Below are positions 11,166 through 31,094 of a stretch of DNA of 64,000 nucleotides, piece by piece. Location of the stretch: contig MU053881.1 in assembly GCA_013239625.1 (NCBI GenBank), positions 1,798,001 through 1,862,000 on the forward strand, given 5' to 3'. The position numbers and the translations under genes are program-made. Within the stretch, counting starts at the first letter, position 1. Every line of letters starts with the position of its first letter. The notes beneath the pieces are model-generated. The model saw only the letters and a program-made list of their open reading frames with translations. It had not been told where the DNA came from and did not search any database. Origin of the DNA: Lama guanicoe. Lineage: Eukaryota.

Positions 11166-14100
11166 CTACACCAGCTTCTTGGCTTCAAAGAAGCTCTTGA
11201 GGTGTCGCATCTGCCAGACGCCGATGGCTACGAGGATGAGGGTCTGCAGGATGGACCACCACAGCACCCGCTGGTTGGTGCTCTCGCTGGTCTGCCGGAA
11301 GCGCTCCTCTCGCCACTGTGGGAGGGGAGAATGAAAGAAGAGCCTGAGTTGGTTGGGGGTCACCTGCAGTTCACTAGAACTGCTGGATTCCTTCCCTGGA
11401 AGATACCCCAGGACCAACCAACTTTGCCCAGGTTCCAGGCAAGTGCCTGAAAAAAGCCATTTCACCCAGGGACTGTTTTCACCCTCACCAGTCAGATGAC
11501 CTCAAACAACCCACTCACTTCTCCTAAGTCTGTCTGCTCATCTGTCAGGTACGGTCCTCCCCCAGGTGCCTGGGGGAGTGGTAAAGTGGTTGTGGTATCA
11601 CCCTATCAGACAGAGCTGTCCTGCAATGCTCAGAAGGGGACCTGCTCTGAGCCCTCTGCCCGGGTCTCCCAAACTGCTCCTTGAAGATTGTGGGCACAAG
11701 TTGAAAATTGGTGGCTCAGGGGCTGGATCTAGCCCGTATGTGTGTTTTGTTTGGTTCACGTAGTGTTCTGACAACATTTAAAACCTGAAAAATTTCACAT
11801 AAACAACCTGAATCTCTAGCTCCTCCTAAAACCCAGAGCTAGCATCTCTGCAAGGCTGTCCTCAGCTGGTAACATGAGCCATTCCTGTTTAGAGAGGGCA
11901 CTATTTTACCAGTCCTTATAGTCACAAATCCATTCATCGTACCTGCCTAGCTCCAGAGTTTGAAACTCTGGTCCTGGGAGCACTGAGGACCATGGAACTA
12001 GCACCCAAGGTGTTGATATCAATTCCTGCTGTCACTTTGTGTATCTCCTAATAAGACAATGACAGCCTCTTAAGAGATCTGTCTCCTCAATTACAAAGTA
12101 GAGCCAGTAATACCCATGCCACCACTTAGCCTAACAACACAGCAGAGACACGTAAGTCCCTGGGGTTCAAAATGAATCTGACGTGCAACTCCTGGCTAAG
12201 TGAGTGCGCAGCGTCTGGGGAGAAGCCCACTGCTCCCGGCCTGACCACTCACCCGCTGGTAGTTCTGCTCTTTCTGGATCTGCTCCACCTGCTCCACCAG
12301 CTGTCGCACACGTAGCTGCAACTCACTCAACTTGTCTTTGGCAGCAATTTCTGCATAGTCATTGGCATGTTCACCTACCTGGATGTCCAGATGAACTCTC
12401 TGGAGACAGACAAGGAAGATAAGGAGAATCAGGTAGTCCTGCTGTGTCTTCCTGCCAGGGCCTAACAGCTGGTCCTCCCACCTTTCTTCATTTGTTCATT
12501 TAGCCAACACTGACTGAGGCCTCCTCAGTGTCCGGCCCTATGGGGCTCTAGGCCCATAGGCAAGAACAAGCCTTGGCTGATGCTTGCCTAGAGCATATAC
12601 AAAGAGCCCTGCAACCATGTCCTGAATATCCACCGGAAACCCGGTCTTATCAGGAGACACAAAATCTGACACAGTCATCTCACACCCACAGTATCACCAG
12701 TCTCCAGCCCTGACCATGGGCTAGAGGCTGAAAGCCATGAGTCCCATGTGGGTCCACTTACCAGCATGCCTCCAGCAAAAAGGGAGAACTTGGTGGAATT
12801 GGAGTGAAGACAGATTTGGTGCTCACCAGGGGTGTGGGAGGTGAAGGTGAACCTGCCTTCAGAGCCATACTGCCGGGCCAGGATGACCTGGAGAGAAGAG
12901 GCTTCGGTGAGTGTTATAGTGGGGATGGGGCTGGACGGTGATTAAGGCAGTAAGAGCCTCAAAAGTTGACAGGCAGAGCCTTAGGCACCCTGCAACACTA
13001 AAAGGTTTAGTGCTGGTTAGCAGCAGGTGCCAAAAACTTGTCTTCAAACAATTTGGAGCAGGGGTGAAGAGTCTAACATTAGTCTGGCACATGACCACAC
13101 TTGGAAAGGGCTTTCTTTATTCATGGCTTGTGACCTTTCAACTCTTTTGGTGTAATTATTTTTTTTTAAGTGAAAGTGACAGCTAAAGGGTTTTGGAAGG
13201 GGAGGGTACAGCTCAAGTGTTAGAGTGCATGCTTAGCATGCATGAGGCCTTGGGTTCAATCCCCAGTACCTCCTCTAAAAATAAACCTAATTGCCTTCCT
13301 CCCACCAAAATAAATACATACATACATACATACATAAAATTTTAAATTAAAAAAAGAGTTTTGGGTTTTTGGTTTGTTTGTTTTAATATCCTTATCTGTC
13401 AAAATCAAAAGCTGCTCATTCTTTTCGGAAAGTACCCTATTCCGTGAAATCCTAAAGTCTAGATGTCACAGCTTTAGAGTTGACAAAACTCTTCGATTTC
13501 CAGCAGCACAATTAATCCACCCATCACCCATTACCCATTACCTATCTATAAGATAGACGAATTTCCATTTCACAGACCAGGAAAATGGCTCAGGAAAAGT
13601 AAAGGACTTCGCCGAGTCCTAAAGTGGTAAGAGGCTGAGAGGAGCAGCCAGCACTGCAACAGCCCAAGGCTGGCCTGGAGTGAAAATCCAGCATCTTCCC
13701 ACAATACCAACTGTTTTTACCAGTTTAGCAGATGCGGAAACCAGGAAGGGAAGTAACAGAGCCTGCTTGGTCTGGCGCTCAAGTGCAGAGCAGAGGGCTC
13801 AGCGAGGTTCAAGGGCCGCCTCACCTTGTCCTCTGGGTCCTTCACCTCCACGAACATGCCAAGCCCGGGGGTGGCCGGCTGGTACTCCTCTCGCTGCTTG
13901 TCATACAGCTGCGTCCGGTAGTTTCCTGGGGAGAAGCGAGGCGAGCGCAATCAGAGGAGCGCGGGGAGGCGCCGGGTCCGCGGCCACCGGTGCACGGCGA
14001 GGCCGGCTGCTCCTGGCTCCGGAGAGCTGACTTGCCCGCACCCCGCGCCCCAAGACCGCGGTCTAGTCGCAAACTCTCCCCCGTCCCCCGCACCTATAAC

Positions 14101-14277
14101 CATGGTCTCGTCCGGAATCTCCTCGATAAAGCACTTCTTTTCTGTCTCCCCGATGTGAAAGTAGAGCGCGCCTCCGCGGGCCGCGAACAACAGCAGCAGG
14201 AGGAGGGCCCGAACGACCCTACCCAGCCCCGCTCCCGGGCAGGGCCCAGCGACCCGCGCGCTCTGCTCCGCAGCCAT
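11166..14277 (-). CDS. TMED9: Transmembrane emp24 domain-containing protein 9 (p24-alpha2/p25), complete, 5 exons, 235 aa
   Basis: Exons (minus): 14277-14094, 13925-13825, 12887-12762, 12399-12253, 11315-11166 (184/101/126/147/150 nt, total 708), all GT-AG. Signal peptide, GOLD domain ([27 protein letters not shown]...[12 protein letters not shown]), coiled coil, TM helix, tail [10 protein letters not shown]. Confidence 0.98.
13199..13355 (+). mobile_element. tRNA-derived SINE (camelid Vic-1-like) in TMED9 intron 2
   Basis: Head GGGGAGGGTACAGCTCAAGTGTTAGAG...GGTTCAATCCCC with Pol III A/B boxes, A-rich (TACA)n tail, near-perfect TSD AAAG(G/A)GTTTTGG. Confidence 0.85.
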
Positions 14278-17640: not shown

Positions 17641-19519
17641 ACTACTTTTACTACTTGGGAAGCTATGTCACCCATCCTAGCATCTAGGTACTTGGCTTTG
17701 AAATCTTGCTGTAAAGTCGCTGGTGCACTCTCTCCTCACATGCATGTCCCTGCAGGCCCTAGTAATTTTCTACTTTTGTCCCTTTAGGGGATTTCTGAGG
17801 GCAGTCCACTGGACCACTGCCATGCAACAGTGTTACTGTCGGCCAGTGCTGGTCCCTGAATGTCTGTTATATTTCTGCAATGAAGTAAGTACTGAAATTA
17901 AGTGTTTAGAAACCTTTGTAGAAATTTAACATTTATGTGACATCCAAGCACACAATAAGTTTGTTTTACAAAAGTACTGGTTCATGAGGGATTAGAAATT
18001 TTTATGAAAACTCAAAACTAATACCAGTCCTTTGCTGCAGGCAGTGATACTGGCGATTGCAGTTCAGGACCATGGACAGCACCTCTTTCTGCCTCCCCAG
18101 CCCTGAGCGATCACCCCTGCTCCCAGCTCCTGGTGAATGGCCTTGGTTAACAACTACTTCCCAAATCCAACAGATGCTTTTCAGCCCTTGTCTTAATTGA
18201 CCTTTCTGAAGTGTTTGCCTTTGCTAACACATGCATCTGTCATTTTTGTTTAAAGACCATTCCCAAAGAAGGAATAAAAATGTCCCCCTAGAATTTAGCG
18301 GTGTGCCACACCGTTAAAATGAAGGGACAATTCCTGGTAGCTAAACATATTATTAAAACACTGTCTTGATATTGCTTCTTTGCTTTTCAGCGGTCTCTTA
18401 GAGGGCAGGAGACAAGTCTTATTCATCTTCGTGTCCAACATGTATTGTAAGCCAGAGTTTGTAAACCCAGAGTAAATGCCTTTCACTTGTCAGCTGGATG
18501 ACCTTGGGCAAGTTATTACTTAACTTCTCCTTGCCGCTGCTTCCCCAGATGTTAAACTAGAATCCCATTAGAGTCCACCTTATAGAGTTTCTAAAATATT
18601 AATTCAGTTAATACATTTAAGAGTGCTTAGAACAGTGTCTGGCATAGAAGAATTAAAAGTATTATTATTTTCATCCTCAATATTTTATATTGCTGAATAA
18701 AACAATGAGCATCTATTATCATCAGACACTAGATGGTGTAGGTCTTCATCCCACCACCTGGCTAGGGCTCCTGCTGTATATTGACAGTAGTTTGAATCTA
18801 CACTGTCCTACTCAAGGCACCGTGAACTTTGGAATTCCTGAGATTTGCTTTTCCTGGGTCCCATCCTGTTATATTGACTGCACTCTCCCATCCCACCCCT
18901 TTCAGTTGTGTATCACCTTTTCTTTTCCAGTTGGATTCCTGCCACCTTCTGTCACCCTCCAGTCTCACTCACAATCTCTTATGTTCACACTGGATGAAGG
19001 GTCCCACCTGTACAAGTGAGCCTGGCAGCTCCTGCCCCCCTCAGTGATTCAGCCCAATTTACCTCCTCCTCCCTTCCTGTTCCCATAATCTTTCTCCCCC
19101 CAGTCCTTTAACTGGCCTACTGGCTGCTAGGCACTTCCAGGTCCCTCCACCAAAATGTCCTTGCTCCCCCGTTGCTCAGGGAGATTTTAACCATCTTTCA
19201 GAGCTTGAATCAAATTTATCCCTTCCATAAAAGCCATGGTATTTTTCCCTCCCTTTCCTGAACTACTACGTCAGCCTCTGAACCCTAGAGGGCTTCTCTG
19301 CAGTTCTCATTCCGTCTCACCTACATCAGTTCTATGCTCCTCGAGGTTCAGGTCCAGGTCATAAACTTCCCACCTGCCCACACTCTCAACACCCATCTCG
19401 GCAGCCGCTCTGCAAGTTTCAGAGGGCAAGCCCTTTTCTCTCTCTGAGGCTATTACTCCCACCAGCAGGATGGGGCTAAGAGTACCTGGCTCCCTAGATT
19501 TTATTAAGCGAGGAGGGGC

Positions 19520-19935
19520 AGGGAAAGCGCTCGAGAGAGCCTCATTAGTTGGGTGGGGGCTCCGGTGGCCCTTCAGCAGCGCGGGTCCGCGGGAATGCGC
19601 CTGGGGCGGAGCCGCGCGGGGCCTCCTGGGAGTTGTAGTCCGTGCCGGAGTTCGCAGTCTCCGCAGGTCCCGCACGGAGGTGGCAGGCTCGCCCGGGAAG
19701 GTGGCGGGGGCCTGCGGGGTGCAAGGCGCTGGGCCCGGCGCCGGCCCCCGGCGGCGATGGAACCGAATACGGGCAGCGGGACTGACGCTGCCACTGCTGC
19801 TGGGCCAGCTGCTGGCACTGACCGGCGGCGGGGGCGCGTTCTACCTCGAGGTCCGCGAGCTGGAGGAGAAATGCTTCATTCAGGAGATCCCCGATGGCAC
19901 CATGGTCATAGGTGCGCGCGCAGCCAGTCTCGGCC
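19520..19935 (+). promoter_or_regulatory. CpG island promoter of the TMED9-like gene with SP1 GC box (19603-19612) and ZNF143/THAP11-type motif (19627-19639)
   Basis: GGGGCGGAGC and TGGGAGTTGTAGT (reverse complement ACTACAACTCCCA); retained CpG density. Confidence 0.75.
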
Positions 19936-21874
19936 TTGCCCTCCCCTCGCCCAGAGTCCTGAGTGGGGATGGGGGATGGAGATCCGCGAGATCAGCTCAG
20001 GCCCGCACCTCCCCTCTGCTGTCGGGGATGGGCTTGGGTGGGAAATGGGTGCACAGGAGTGTAACCAAAGCATTCTCTCCCTTGCCTGTGCTGAGTGGAG
20101 CTGGGGGCACAGAGGAGACAAGTCTGATCCAGATCCGGATGACAGCAGAAAAGCGGGGCTGGAGAGTGGAAGAGAGAGGCTGAGGACTGGGGTCAGGCCC
20201 CCGCAGTGAGATGCCTGGATCTTCCTGTTCCTCCCTACCCCTACCCCCAACCCCTTCCCTGGCCCTCTGTGACTCCAGGAGGTCCTGAGCAGAAAGCGGT
20301 GCGGGGTTTGGTCATGGGTGTGGATGGGGCTGCATCCAGTCTACCTCTCCATTAGGTAACTACAAGACAGAGCTATACGACCCTGCTATGGAAAAGTACC
20401 AGCCCTCCCCTCAATGGATCAATTTGTTCGTGTTTGTGAAGGACCCTGAGAACAAGGTGAGGTGGACCTGGACTCCTTGCCGCCCCCGGGGCCTCCAGCA
20501 TCAATGCCTAGTCCTCTCTAGTTCTCCACTTCTCAGAGGAGGGCCCGTCTCCTCACAGGCAGAAAAGCTGAAGGAAGGCCATGCTCTCTGCAAACTGTAG
20601 AGCATCCTGCATTGGCCATCCTGGGATCTGAGACTTTCTATTCCACTGATGCCATTTCTCTTACACCCTCCCCGCTGGGCTGGCCTGTGGAGGTCAGGAC
20701 CTGGGATACCCCCAGAGTTCCTCTCCTAGAAGCAAGTTTCCAATAAGCTTCTCTGTGCTCACTGGAGGCTGCTTCCTCTAGAACCTGCTGTCCCGTCAGT
20801 ACGGCCCTCAGGGCAGCTTCACCTTCACCTCCCAGTCCCCTGGAGAGCACCAGATCTGCCTTCACCTCGAGTCCATCCGGTTCGCCCTCTTCTATGGTAG
20901 TAAGCTGGTGAGTGTGGCAAGGGGAGGTCCACTGACCTGGGGAGCTCAAGGTCTCAGTCCCTGGGGTGGGAAGGTTGCAGTGGGTGGTGCCTCTTGAGGA
21001 GGGCTGGGCTTTCTATGAAAGACAGCTCCTGAAGGATGAGAGGGGAACCAGGATGGAGTCACTCTGTCTTAAAATCCTCCCTTAGCTCCCTGACATCCCA
21101 GCATAAGGACCAATGTGAAATTTAGAGCTGTTCAGCAGCAGAATGCTCCCAGGCTCTTCATTGCCACCTCCCACTGACACAGAACTAGCAGCTGCCTGCC
21201 TCAAACACTGAGTCATACCTCTGTTTCTTTGCACATTTGGTCCTGTCCCTTCTGTCTTTTGGACGTGGACTTGATCTGGGGTTTTGATACCCAGAGCAGG
21301 GCTAGTCCCCGCCTCAGTGAGTGTGAGGAACTGAACTGCCCACTTTAGTTCAATGTCAGGCCCAGACTGGGGTGTGGAAGCTGGGTTTCTCGCAGGTGCA
21401 TATAGCTGAGCTTCCTGACCCCCATCCTTGGTTCCCCTGCTCCCCAGGCCATTCACTTGGACATGCAGTTGGGTGAACGCACCAATGATTATACAGAATT
21501 TGCGGCCAATGACAAGCTGACTCTGCTGCAACTGCGCATACAGCAGCTGGTAGAACAGGTGGAGAAGATCCAGAAGGAGCAGGAGCACCAGAGGGTAAGG
21601 GGTGGGCTGGCCCAGTTGAGACAGAGAGGATGTGTAACCTCCCAGGGACTGGCTCTTCCGGCTCCTCCTCTGGGGGGCGGGGATTCATTTCTAGCCGGGC
21701 GCCTTTTCCGTTCTCACCTCCCAGTGGCGAGAGGAGCGCTTCCGGCAAACCAGCGAGAGCACCAACCAGCGGGTACTGTGGTGGTCCATTCTGCAGACCC
21801 TCATCCTCGTGGCCACTGGCGTCTGGCAGATGCTGCACCTCAAGAGCTTCTTTAAAGCCAAGAAGCTGGTGTAG
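19757..21874 (+). CDS. TMED9-like p24-alpha paralog (GOLD-domain type I membrane protein), 5 exons; start codon unresolved (possible 1-nt frameshift, start loss or recent pseudogenisation)
   Basis: Exons (plus): ~19757/19767-19911, 20356-20456, 20782-20907, 21448-21594, 21725-21874, all GT-AG. Exons 2-5 are 101/126/147/150 nt, as in TMED9, and contain no internal stops. Translation: (I)[221 protein letters not shown]. The only upstream in-frame ATG is at 19470. Confidence 0.88.
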
Positions 21875-30360: not shown

Positions 30361-31094
30361 ATCTAGAGAATGAGTCCACTGCTGTATATCTGTACGTTTG
30401 CAGGAATAAATGAGTGGAGGAATGAGACCTGGTCAAACATAGCCTTTGACTCACCACGCACTTTTCTGGTTCCAGGAATGTTCTCAGACAACATGCTCCC
30501 TCTGCCTCTCTGTGACCCTTGGGAACAGAAGAGTAGACGGTGACAGCAATGAGCATCTGCAAAGAGGGGTTCTTAACCGGACTCCCAGCTCGCTCTCTCC
30601 AGCTCTCCTCCCGCCCCTGCTTGGCCTCCCTCCTCACTGGCCCCCAAGACACGCCACCACCCCAGGAGCCTCATCCCTTCCCTGCCTACCTGAAGCTTCC
30701 TCCACATGGCATAGAGACCCTACTTGAATCAATAGTCAAATCCTTCCTTGGAGGCTGCAGAGCAGGGCCCGGGGCTCAGCACCAACGCACTCTTACTTAA
30801 TCCCACCTGCCCCTCCCTGAGCATCGCTGCCTGGCTGGGAGGGTCCTGCTCTCTACCGGCCACGAGCCTCGCAGACGGTGTCCATCCCTCAATAGAAAAA
30901 AAAGTAAAACTGGAAGCAGGGCCTAGAGGACTCAGGATGGAGGTTGACGGCTATGGAGGGAAGAAGGAGGAGCAAGGAAGCGCCCGTGGGACTGGAGGAT
31001 GGAGAAAGGCTTCCAGACTGAGCATTACAGCCCGCAGCAGAGGAGAGCAGAGCGTGAATTTCTCTAGGTTCCTACCTTCCAGCCTTTTGTTTAC

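Follow-up and report, generated by a model that had tools for sequence, protein, structure and literature searches.

A 2023 review of the family recognizes ten p24 genes in mammals, and the alpha subfamily among them is made up of TMED4, TMED9 and, outside humans, TMED11, which is a pseudogene in human (PMC10620864). TMED9 has been solved as a homo-octamer and a homo-dodecamer (PDB 9CJK and 9CJL), and it is being studied as a receptor that traps misfolded secretory cargo (PMC11414720). A solved entry for TMED2, TMED9 and TMED10 also exists (PDB 21gl). Here, a stretch of 64,000 nucleotides from Lama guanicoe (assembly GCA_013239625.1, contig MU053881.1, positions 1,798,001 to 1,862,000), called the window below and numbered from its first letter, was analyzed. 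It holds TMED9 and, beside it, a second gene of the same type that we call TMED9L (TMED9-like). We consider it likely that TMED9L is a fourth p24-alpha gene, derived by duplication of TMED9, kept under purifying selection and encoding a predicted cargo-receptor subunit. The gene is real and probably functional.

TMED9L consists of five exons on the plus strand. The coding part of exon 1 (19758..19911) encodes a hydrophobic, signal-like segment followed by the first strand of the GOLD domain with its cysteine. Exon 2 (20356..20456, 101 nucleotides) is entered in phase 1 and left in phase 0, exon 3 (20782..20907, 126 nucleotides) carries the second GOLD cysteine, exon 4 (21448..21594, 147 nucleotides) holds the end of the GOLD domain and coiled-coil sequence, and exon 5 (21725..21874, 150 nucleotides including the stop) encodes the end of the coiled coil, the transmembrane (TM) helix and the tail. 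The borders were reproduced, every acceptor is AG and every donor is GT, and the spliced frame (19758-21871) is stop-free over 225 codons. TMED9 lies on the minus strand (11166..14277; exons 14277-14094, 13925-13825, 12887-12762, 12399-12253 and 11315-11166) and encodes 235 amino acids, also open when spliced. The two genes are head-to-head, with 5.48 kb between the TMED9 ATG (14277) and the TMED9L ATG (19757). Exons 2-5 have identical sizes and phases in both genes. The spliced frame encodes both GOLD cysteines (in EKCF and HQICLH), the coiled coil, the TM helix and a tail with FF and KKLV motifs. A preliminary description of the locus, made from the letters of the window, had proposed a divergent five-exon gene about 5.5 kb from TMED9 with these exon sizes, splice sites and protein features, and all of this holds.

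The predicted protein belongs to the p24 family by its domain content. Two orthologous models, P0003 and P0034, matched Pfam EMP24_GP25L (PF01105) over profile positions 1-182 with 164 and 168 bits, respectively (cut-off 25.9), and the alpaca model P0003 differs from the window TMED9L at 4 of 321 residues. When the window exons were compared singly with this profile, only exon 4 (27.6 bits) and exon 5 (66.7 bits) passed alone. The best solved relative is TMED9 (PDB 9cjk, E 5e-98), followed at a distance by TMED10 chains (E 3e-19) and TMED2 chains (2e-12).

The comparison of the two window genes points to an old duplication. Amino acid identity is 18/33 in exon 2 (19/34 when the split Gly codon is counted), 26/42 in exon 3 and 33/49 in exon 4, the same counts as in the preliminary description, which had read them as an old duplication followed by purifying selection. 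Nucleotide identity over exons 1-4 is 65-75%, with about 1.0 synonymous changes per synonymous site (dS) between the paralogs and a ratio of nonsynonymous to synonymous change (dN/dS) of 0.25, values that agree with that reading. Exon 5 is different. The two copies (21725-21874 and 11166-11315) share 141 of 150 nucleotides (94%) and 46 of 49 amino acids, with a dS of 0.21. The likeness breaks off precisely at either exon border, and the nine differences are distributed evenly along the exon. The GC content at third codon positions (GC3) is 0.86-0.90 in both copies; this high GC3 lowers the ceiling on silent divergence. Neither intron 4, nor the 3' side of exon 5, nor the other introns align between the genes. 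The residues specific to TMED9L in exon 5 (T and K) are common to several orders. The likeness of exon 5 would fit either an old gene conversion limited to the exon or equally extreme constraint together with the high GC3 of the two copies. The preliminary description had mentioned neither the 46/49 identity of exon 5 nor the frame shift at the ATG that is described below.

To place TMED9L, maximum likelihood trees were built from 53 rows: 17 of TMED9L, 16 of TMED9, 12 of TMED4, 5 of TMED11 and 3 outgroups, with the beta, gamma and delta p24 members outside the set. These were quick trees with values from the Shimodaira-Hasegawa-like approximate likelihood ratio test (SH-aLRT) as their only support, and the tree made without exon 5 had 149 columns. 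TMED9L formed a single clade (SH-aLRT 100) whether or not exon 5 was included. This clade joined placental TMED9 (support 99 when exon 5 was included, 91 when it was left out) and in neither tree TMED4 or TMED11. Each time, TMED11 stood apart on a long branch of its own (100), and TMED4 formed another clade. An extra alpha-type gene, as the preliminary description had proposed, is thus what the trees return, including the one without exon 5 that it had called for. The branch leading to the TMED9L clade is long, at 0.52 changes per column without exon 5. Orthologs are found in Laurasiatheria as well as in lagomorphs, and under the accepted mammal phylogeny TMED9 would then have been duplicated locally, in inverted orientation, before these groups diverged. 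For any finer dating the tree is weak: the rows include neither marsupial nor monotreme TMED9, and among placentals the protein does not vary over exons 1-4.

Two other explanations of the locus are very improbable. One is that TMED9L is the ortholog of TMED11 or TMED4 and merely happens to adjoin TMED9. Nothing was found in favor of this, and TMED9L clusters with TMED9 with or without exon 5. Furthermore, TMED4 and at least exons 3-5 of TMED11 were found on other contigs of the same genome. The TMED4 locus is 94-100% identical to named TMED4 in exons 2, 4 and 5, with the alignments of exons 1 and 3 running past the exon borders at 64-70%, and exons 3-5 of the TMED11 locus are 71-98% identical to named felid TMED11, depending on the alignment. 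We rejected this identity on the tree and the separate loci; that TMED9L is a TMED9-derived paralog and a fourth p24-alpha gene is supported by the sequence comparisons. The other explanation, which we also regard as hardly credible, is that TMED9L is a young copy of TMED9 or a duplication made by the assembly. The 94% identity of exon 5 could suggest such a recent origin. However, exons 1-4 are only 65-75% identical with a dS near 1.0, the introns and the flanks of exon 5 do not align, and orthologs across many orders carry the same specific residues. An artefact is also contradicted by independent DNA runs, which hold 0.90-0.96 of the words of the stretch. A recent or artefactual duplicate was rejected on these four grounds.

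TMED9L is widespread among laurasiatherian mammals. With the exon 4 peptide as query, 49 proteins were retrieved; their sources are camelids, cetaceans, hippo, pig, peccary, ruminants, horse, rhino, carnivores, pangolins, mole, hare and rabbit. Nearly all of the named ones are called 'transmembrane emp24 domain-containing protein 9-like', and the rest are unnamed GOLD-domain models. When the full-length otter model was the query, shrews, pikas and one bat were added, and TMED9 (68-71% identity) and then TMED4 (60-65%) came next. The preliminary description had guessed that an automated 'TMED9-like' LOC model might already exist; such models exist for dozens of species, covering every one of the six laurasiatherian orders as well as lagomorphs. 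One short open reading frame (ORF) among the database matches, P0301, covers exon 1 and reads EKRF for EKCF, so that the first GOLD cysteine is gone. It is probably a decayed ortholog.

The orthologs were used to look at constraint on the protein. Over 149 mature residues, the non-shrew laurasiatherian TMED9L proteins differ from each other at 1-19 positions (rhino and pangolin at 3, rhino and otter at 4, horse and dolphin at 5). Shrew and rabbit TMED9L differ from the others at 31-46. For comparison, the mature part of TMED9 exons 1-4 shows 0/149 differences among the camelid, rodent, primate and bat rows. Between the window and the dromedary model, there are 4 differences in 199 mature residues, 3 in the 26 residues of the signal segment and 12 in the 96 residues of an extension upstream of it; the mature part and the extension differ significantly (Fisher p 4e-4). 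Compared with the window, RNA contigs of one related species have 34 changes in 1,312 intron bases (2.6%) and 7 in 376 exon bases, counts that are too small for a direct test. Purifying selection on the mature protein in most laurasiatherians, camelids included, is the reading that these comparisons support. TMED9L appears to have changed rapidly at first and then to have been constrained for a long time.

The start of the gene is unusual. The ATG that corresponds to that of TMED9 (19757..19759, plus strand) has a strong context, gcggcgATGg, but its frame is shifted by one base relative to the signal peptide. Translation from this ATG would cover 52 codons and end at a stop in exon 2, and the coding frame runs from 19758. 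In that frame, the hydrophobic signal-like segment precedes FYLEV, and the in-frame ATG ahead of the segment lies 96 codons upstream (19470..19472, plus strand, context agcaggATGg). This codon heads the 96-residue extension and is used by the 321-amino-acid camelid models of NCBI. The other in-frame ATG, 19902, is inside the GOLD strand, downstream of the signal segment and of the first GOLD cysteine. With the ancestral ATG in another frame in the camelid, the signal peptide has to be reached from ATG 19470 or from a non-AUG codon. Each candidate has a drawback: ATG 19470 brings a long and unconstrained N-terminal extension, and a non-AUG codon such as CTG 19782 is downstream of a strong out-of-frame ATG. 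A cap site 3' of 19757 would be needed to drop the out-of-frame ATG from the mRNA.

The same feature was seen in other species. In the coding frame, a W stands at the position of the ATG in predicted proteins or ORFs of camels, dolphin, whale, pig, peccary, bison, horse, rhino, bat, bear and cats. The coding part of exon 1 is nevertheless near-invariant from camelids to carnivores, moles and bat, although most of them share the out-of-frame W. Some lineages have other starts. The bear, cat and mongoose models have an M (MALPLLLG) where the window has the Leu of CTG 19782. The mustelid models begin with MEQSAS at the old ATG, in frame (compare MAAEQSA in TMED9); the protein sequences, the sole basis for this point, imply that the mustelid and pangolin models are one base shorter between the ATG and the position of CTG 19782, so that the old ATG is in frame. 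In the pika model, exon 1 is read in the frame of the ATG, and both the signal peptide and the cysteine are lost. The changes in bear, cat and mongoose and in mustelids and pangolin look like repeated repair of a start that elsewhere may be non-AUG or far upstream.

A CpG island (19500..19950; GC 0.66-0.76, observed/expected CpG 0.74-0.93, compared to at most 0.3 on either flank) covers exon 1 and is likely the promoter region of TMED9L. ATG 19470 lies at its upstream edge. Within the island, the sequence ACTACAACTCCCAG (19626..19639, minus strand) resembles a ZNF143-type promoter motif; it is the one match in the window, and at least one match occurred in 42 of 100 shuffles, so the match is not above chance. 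The same sequence underlies an 'LLGVVVR' pseudo-peptide that is common to the upstream parts of the models of several species.

The locus is transcribed and partly spliced. Twenty-four sequencing runs were listed, 20 of which hold part of the stretch, and 5 of these 20 are recorded as RNA. Three runs of assembled contigs (X1, X2 and X3) and one run of raw reads were compared with positions 19200-21650, a range that leaves the exon 4-5 joint outside. In the raw-read run, made from full-length complementary DNA (X24), nothing could be placed, and it has no bearing on the 5' end. The joint between exons 2 and 3 (20456/20782) was present in 3/3 contig runs and the joint between exons 3 and 4 (20907/21448) in 2/3. 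The preliminary description had asked for spliced reads at its predicted joints: these two were seen, and the exon 1-2 joint (19911/20356) was absent from all three contig runs. Exon 1 has zero depth in X1 and X2. One of the contigs of X3, discussed below, begins so far upstream that it puts RNA, or contaminating DNA, over about 18067-19200, upstream of the CpG island. An alternative 3' exon (30476..30727, plus strand, acceptor ccag/G), joined to exon 4, is found in an RNA contig of X3 and in the Camelus dromedary isoform X1 model (P0004).

Several observations weigh against a functional TMED9L, and most of them concern its RNA and its start. Besides the missing exon 1-2 joint, intron 1 was covered in 3/3 contig runs. 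The X3 contig that begins far upstream, 2,662 nucleotides long, starts more than 1.1 kb before position 19200 and continues without splicing across exon 1 and intron 1 to the end of exon 2, where it is spliced to exons 3 and 4. A loose end after 21594 in X3 maps to 30477, and with the exon at 30476-30727, 83 unrelated residues take the place of the TM helix and the tail. The depth of introns 2 and 3 in X1 and X2 is like that of the exons, which means that unspliced RNA or DNA is abundant there. None of 23 short ORFs in the databases contains the exon 1-2 junction, as all of them run from an exon into the adjoining intron, and the models of several species begin inside intron 1. At the start, ATG 19470 is the sole in-frame ATG upstream of the signal segment, and ATG 19757, being both in a strong context and out of frame, would divert scanning ribosomes. 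Camelid TMED9L also carries about 10 lineage-specific changes per 149 residues. Outside the camelids, the matches listed included no annotated ortholog of any primate, rodent, afrotherian, xenarthran or marsupial, which suggests that TMED9L is dispensable in many lineages, although unannotated copies or relics may be present there. The sheep and goat models (P0019, P0021, P0023, P0025 and P0047) lack the 5' part of exon 3, run into intron 4 or have small deletions, a pattern that suggests decay of TMED9L in the caprine lineage.

A possible explanation for these observations, though in our judgment an unlikely one, is that the camelid locus, and perhaps that of other ungulates, is a transcribed gene in decay. 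Its start would have been lost by a frameshift, exon 1 would no longer be spliced, the RNAs would be non-coding, retaining introns or terminating at the alternative exon, and the frame would be a remnant. The out-of-frame ATG 19757, the retained intron 1 with its unseen joint, the 3' exon that removes the TM helix and the broken look of the caprine models all agree with this. In addition, a full-length spliced ORF from read assemblies was absent among the best 120 matches. However, all five exons are open with intact splice sites, and within camelids the extension next to the mature part has changed six times more than the mature part itself (12/96 compared to 4/199). The coding part of exon 1 has stayed near-invariant across orders, although most of these lineages share the out-of-frame W. 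The missing joint is weak evidence because contigs drop rare variants. For these reasons, the reading of TMED9L as a conserved, protein-coding p24-alpha gene is preferred.

If TMED9L is such a gene, its residues can be compared with TMED9 sites of known role. The roles given in PMC11414720 were mapped onto 14 TMED9L rows including the window. The disulfide cysteines C49 and C121 and the tail residues F228, F229, K232, K233, L234 and V235 are kept in 14/14 rows. Of the tail residues, FF is the signal for COPII and KKLV the signal for COPI (PMC11414720). L161, L164, L171 and I178 of the coiled-coil core and L214 and L225 of the TM core are kept in 13-14 of the 14. H224 and nearly all of the residues that form hydrogen bonds within the trimer are kept as well. 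Other sites have changed. E52 forms the cargo edge of TMED9, and E52R weakens cargo binding (PMC11414720); this position is Q in all 14 TMED9L rows and E in 28/28 rows of TMED9 and TMED4. The inter-trimer contacts of TMED9 are E163, Q165, N183 and Q177, and Q177A lowers oligomer size (PMC11414720). In TMED9L, E163 is replaced by L or Q in 14/14 rows, Q165 by H in 12/14, N183 by E in 14/14 and Q177 by K or L in 8/14. R223, which binds phosphatidylinositol phosphate (PIP) in TMED9 and lowers oligomer size when changed to E (PMC11414720), is L or Q in 12/14.

The mature TMED9L protein is predicted to be a type I cargo-receptor subunit of the endoplasmic reticulum (ER) and Golgi, with a disulfide-bonded GOLD domain, a coiled coil, a TM helix and a tail with FF and KKLV. 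It would cycle between the ER and the Golgi and join p24 assemblies as TMED9 does, and it would differ in the cargo it holds and in the extent of its self-assembly. In p24 hetero-oligomers the other subunits are TMED2, TMED10 and a gamma member, and the preliminary description had suggested that TMED9L could take the place of TMED9 in p24 complexes. From the kept and changed sites, we infer that TMED9L uses the same coats and the same packing of the coiled coil and TM helix as TMED9, and that it differs in its cargo edge and self-assembles less strongly into higher-order forms. We offer, quite tentatively, a further step in which TMED9L has been neofunctionalized: most lineages may make the protein without a canonical AUG before the signal peptide, and E52Q together with the changed inter-trimer and PIP contacts may let TMED9L join TMED9-type assemblies, limit their higher-order growth and alter the cargo retained. 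This is a doubtful proposal at present.

Two further features were noted. On the far side of TMED9L, 11 long plus-strand open frames between 22 and 64 kb were searched against Pfam for the expected neighbor FAM193B, and 0/11 matched. Elsewhere in the genome, at G000:C1858:350867-351394 (minus strand), there is an intronless open frame of 222 amino acids with 32% identity to TMED9L residues 37-224, which may be a retrocopy of another p24 gene.

TMED9L is known to annotation pipelines under an automatic name and is otherwise uncharacterized. A literature search by name and by phylogeny found no description of the gene, and its one match was a fish protein. Two papers that enumerate the p24 members do not include TMED9L. 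It would be the eleventh mammalian p24 gene, with no annotated ortholog in human or mouse and with conservation in livestock, horses, carnivores, cetaceans and rabbits. Most of its interest comes from the residues altered at TMED9 sites whose roles are known from experiments and from the instability of the start codon. TMED9L could serve as a natural variant for testing TMED9 mechanisms, as the coat signals and the coiled-coil core are kept and the cargo-edge glutamate and the assembly contacts are changed. It is also a caveat for the use of dog, pig, cow or rabbit cells as TMED9 models. The unstable start could provide a small, clean case for non-canonical initiation on a secretory protein.

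Among the described p24 proteins, TMED9 is the closest to TMED9L. The two share five exons of the same sizes and phases, the GOLD disulfide, the cores of the coiled coil and the TM helix, and the FF and KKLV signals, and TMED9L orthologs are 68-71% identical to TMED9. They differ in that about 40% of the GOLD residues were replaced in TMED9L and then frozen, and in that E230 of the tail is K in laurasiatherian TMED9L, the window included, as the sole change in the tail. TMED9 also shows no change over 149 residues among camelid, rodent, primate and bat sequences, compared to 1-46 in TMED9L, and the ancestral start of TMED9L is out of frame in most lineages. TMED4 (p24-alpha3) is a member of the same subfamily with the same type of tail and 60-65% identity to TMED9L orthologs, and it differs by its separate clade and separate locus (L009). 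TMED11 (p24-alpha1) is likewise an alpha member and, like TMED9L, is dispensable in some mammals; it differs by its long separate branch, its location on another contig (L010) and its identity of only 47-52% to TMED9L.

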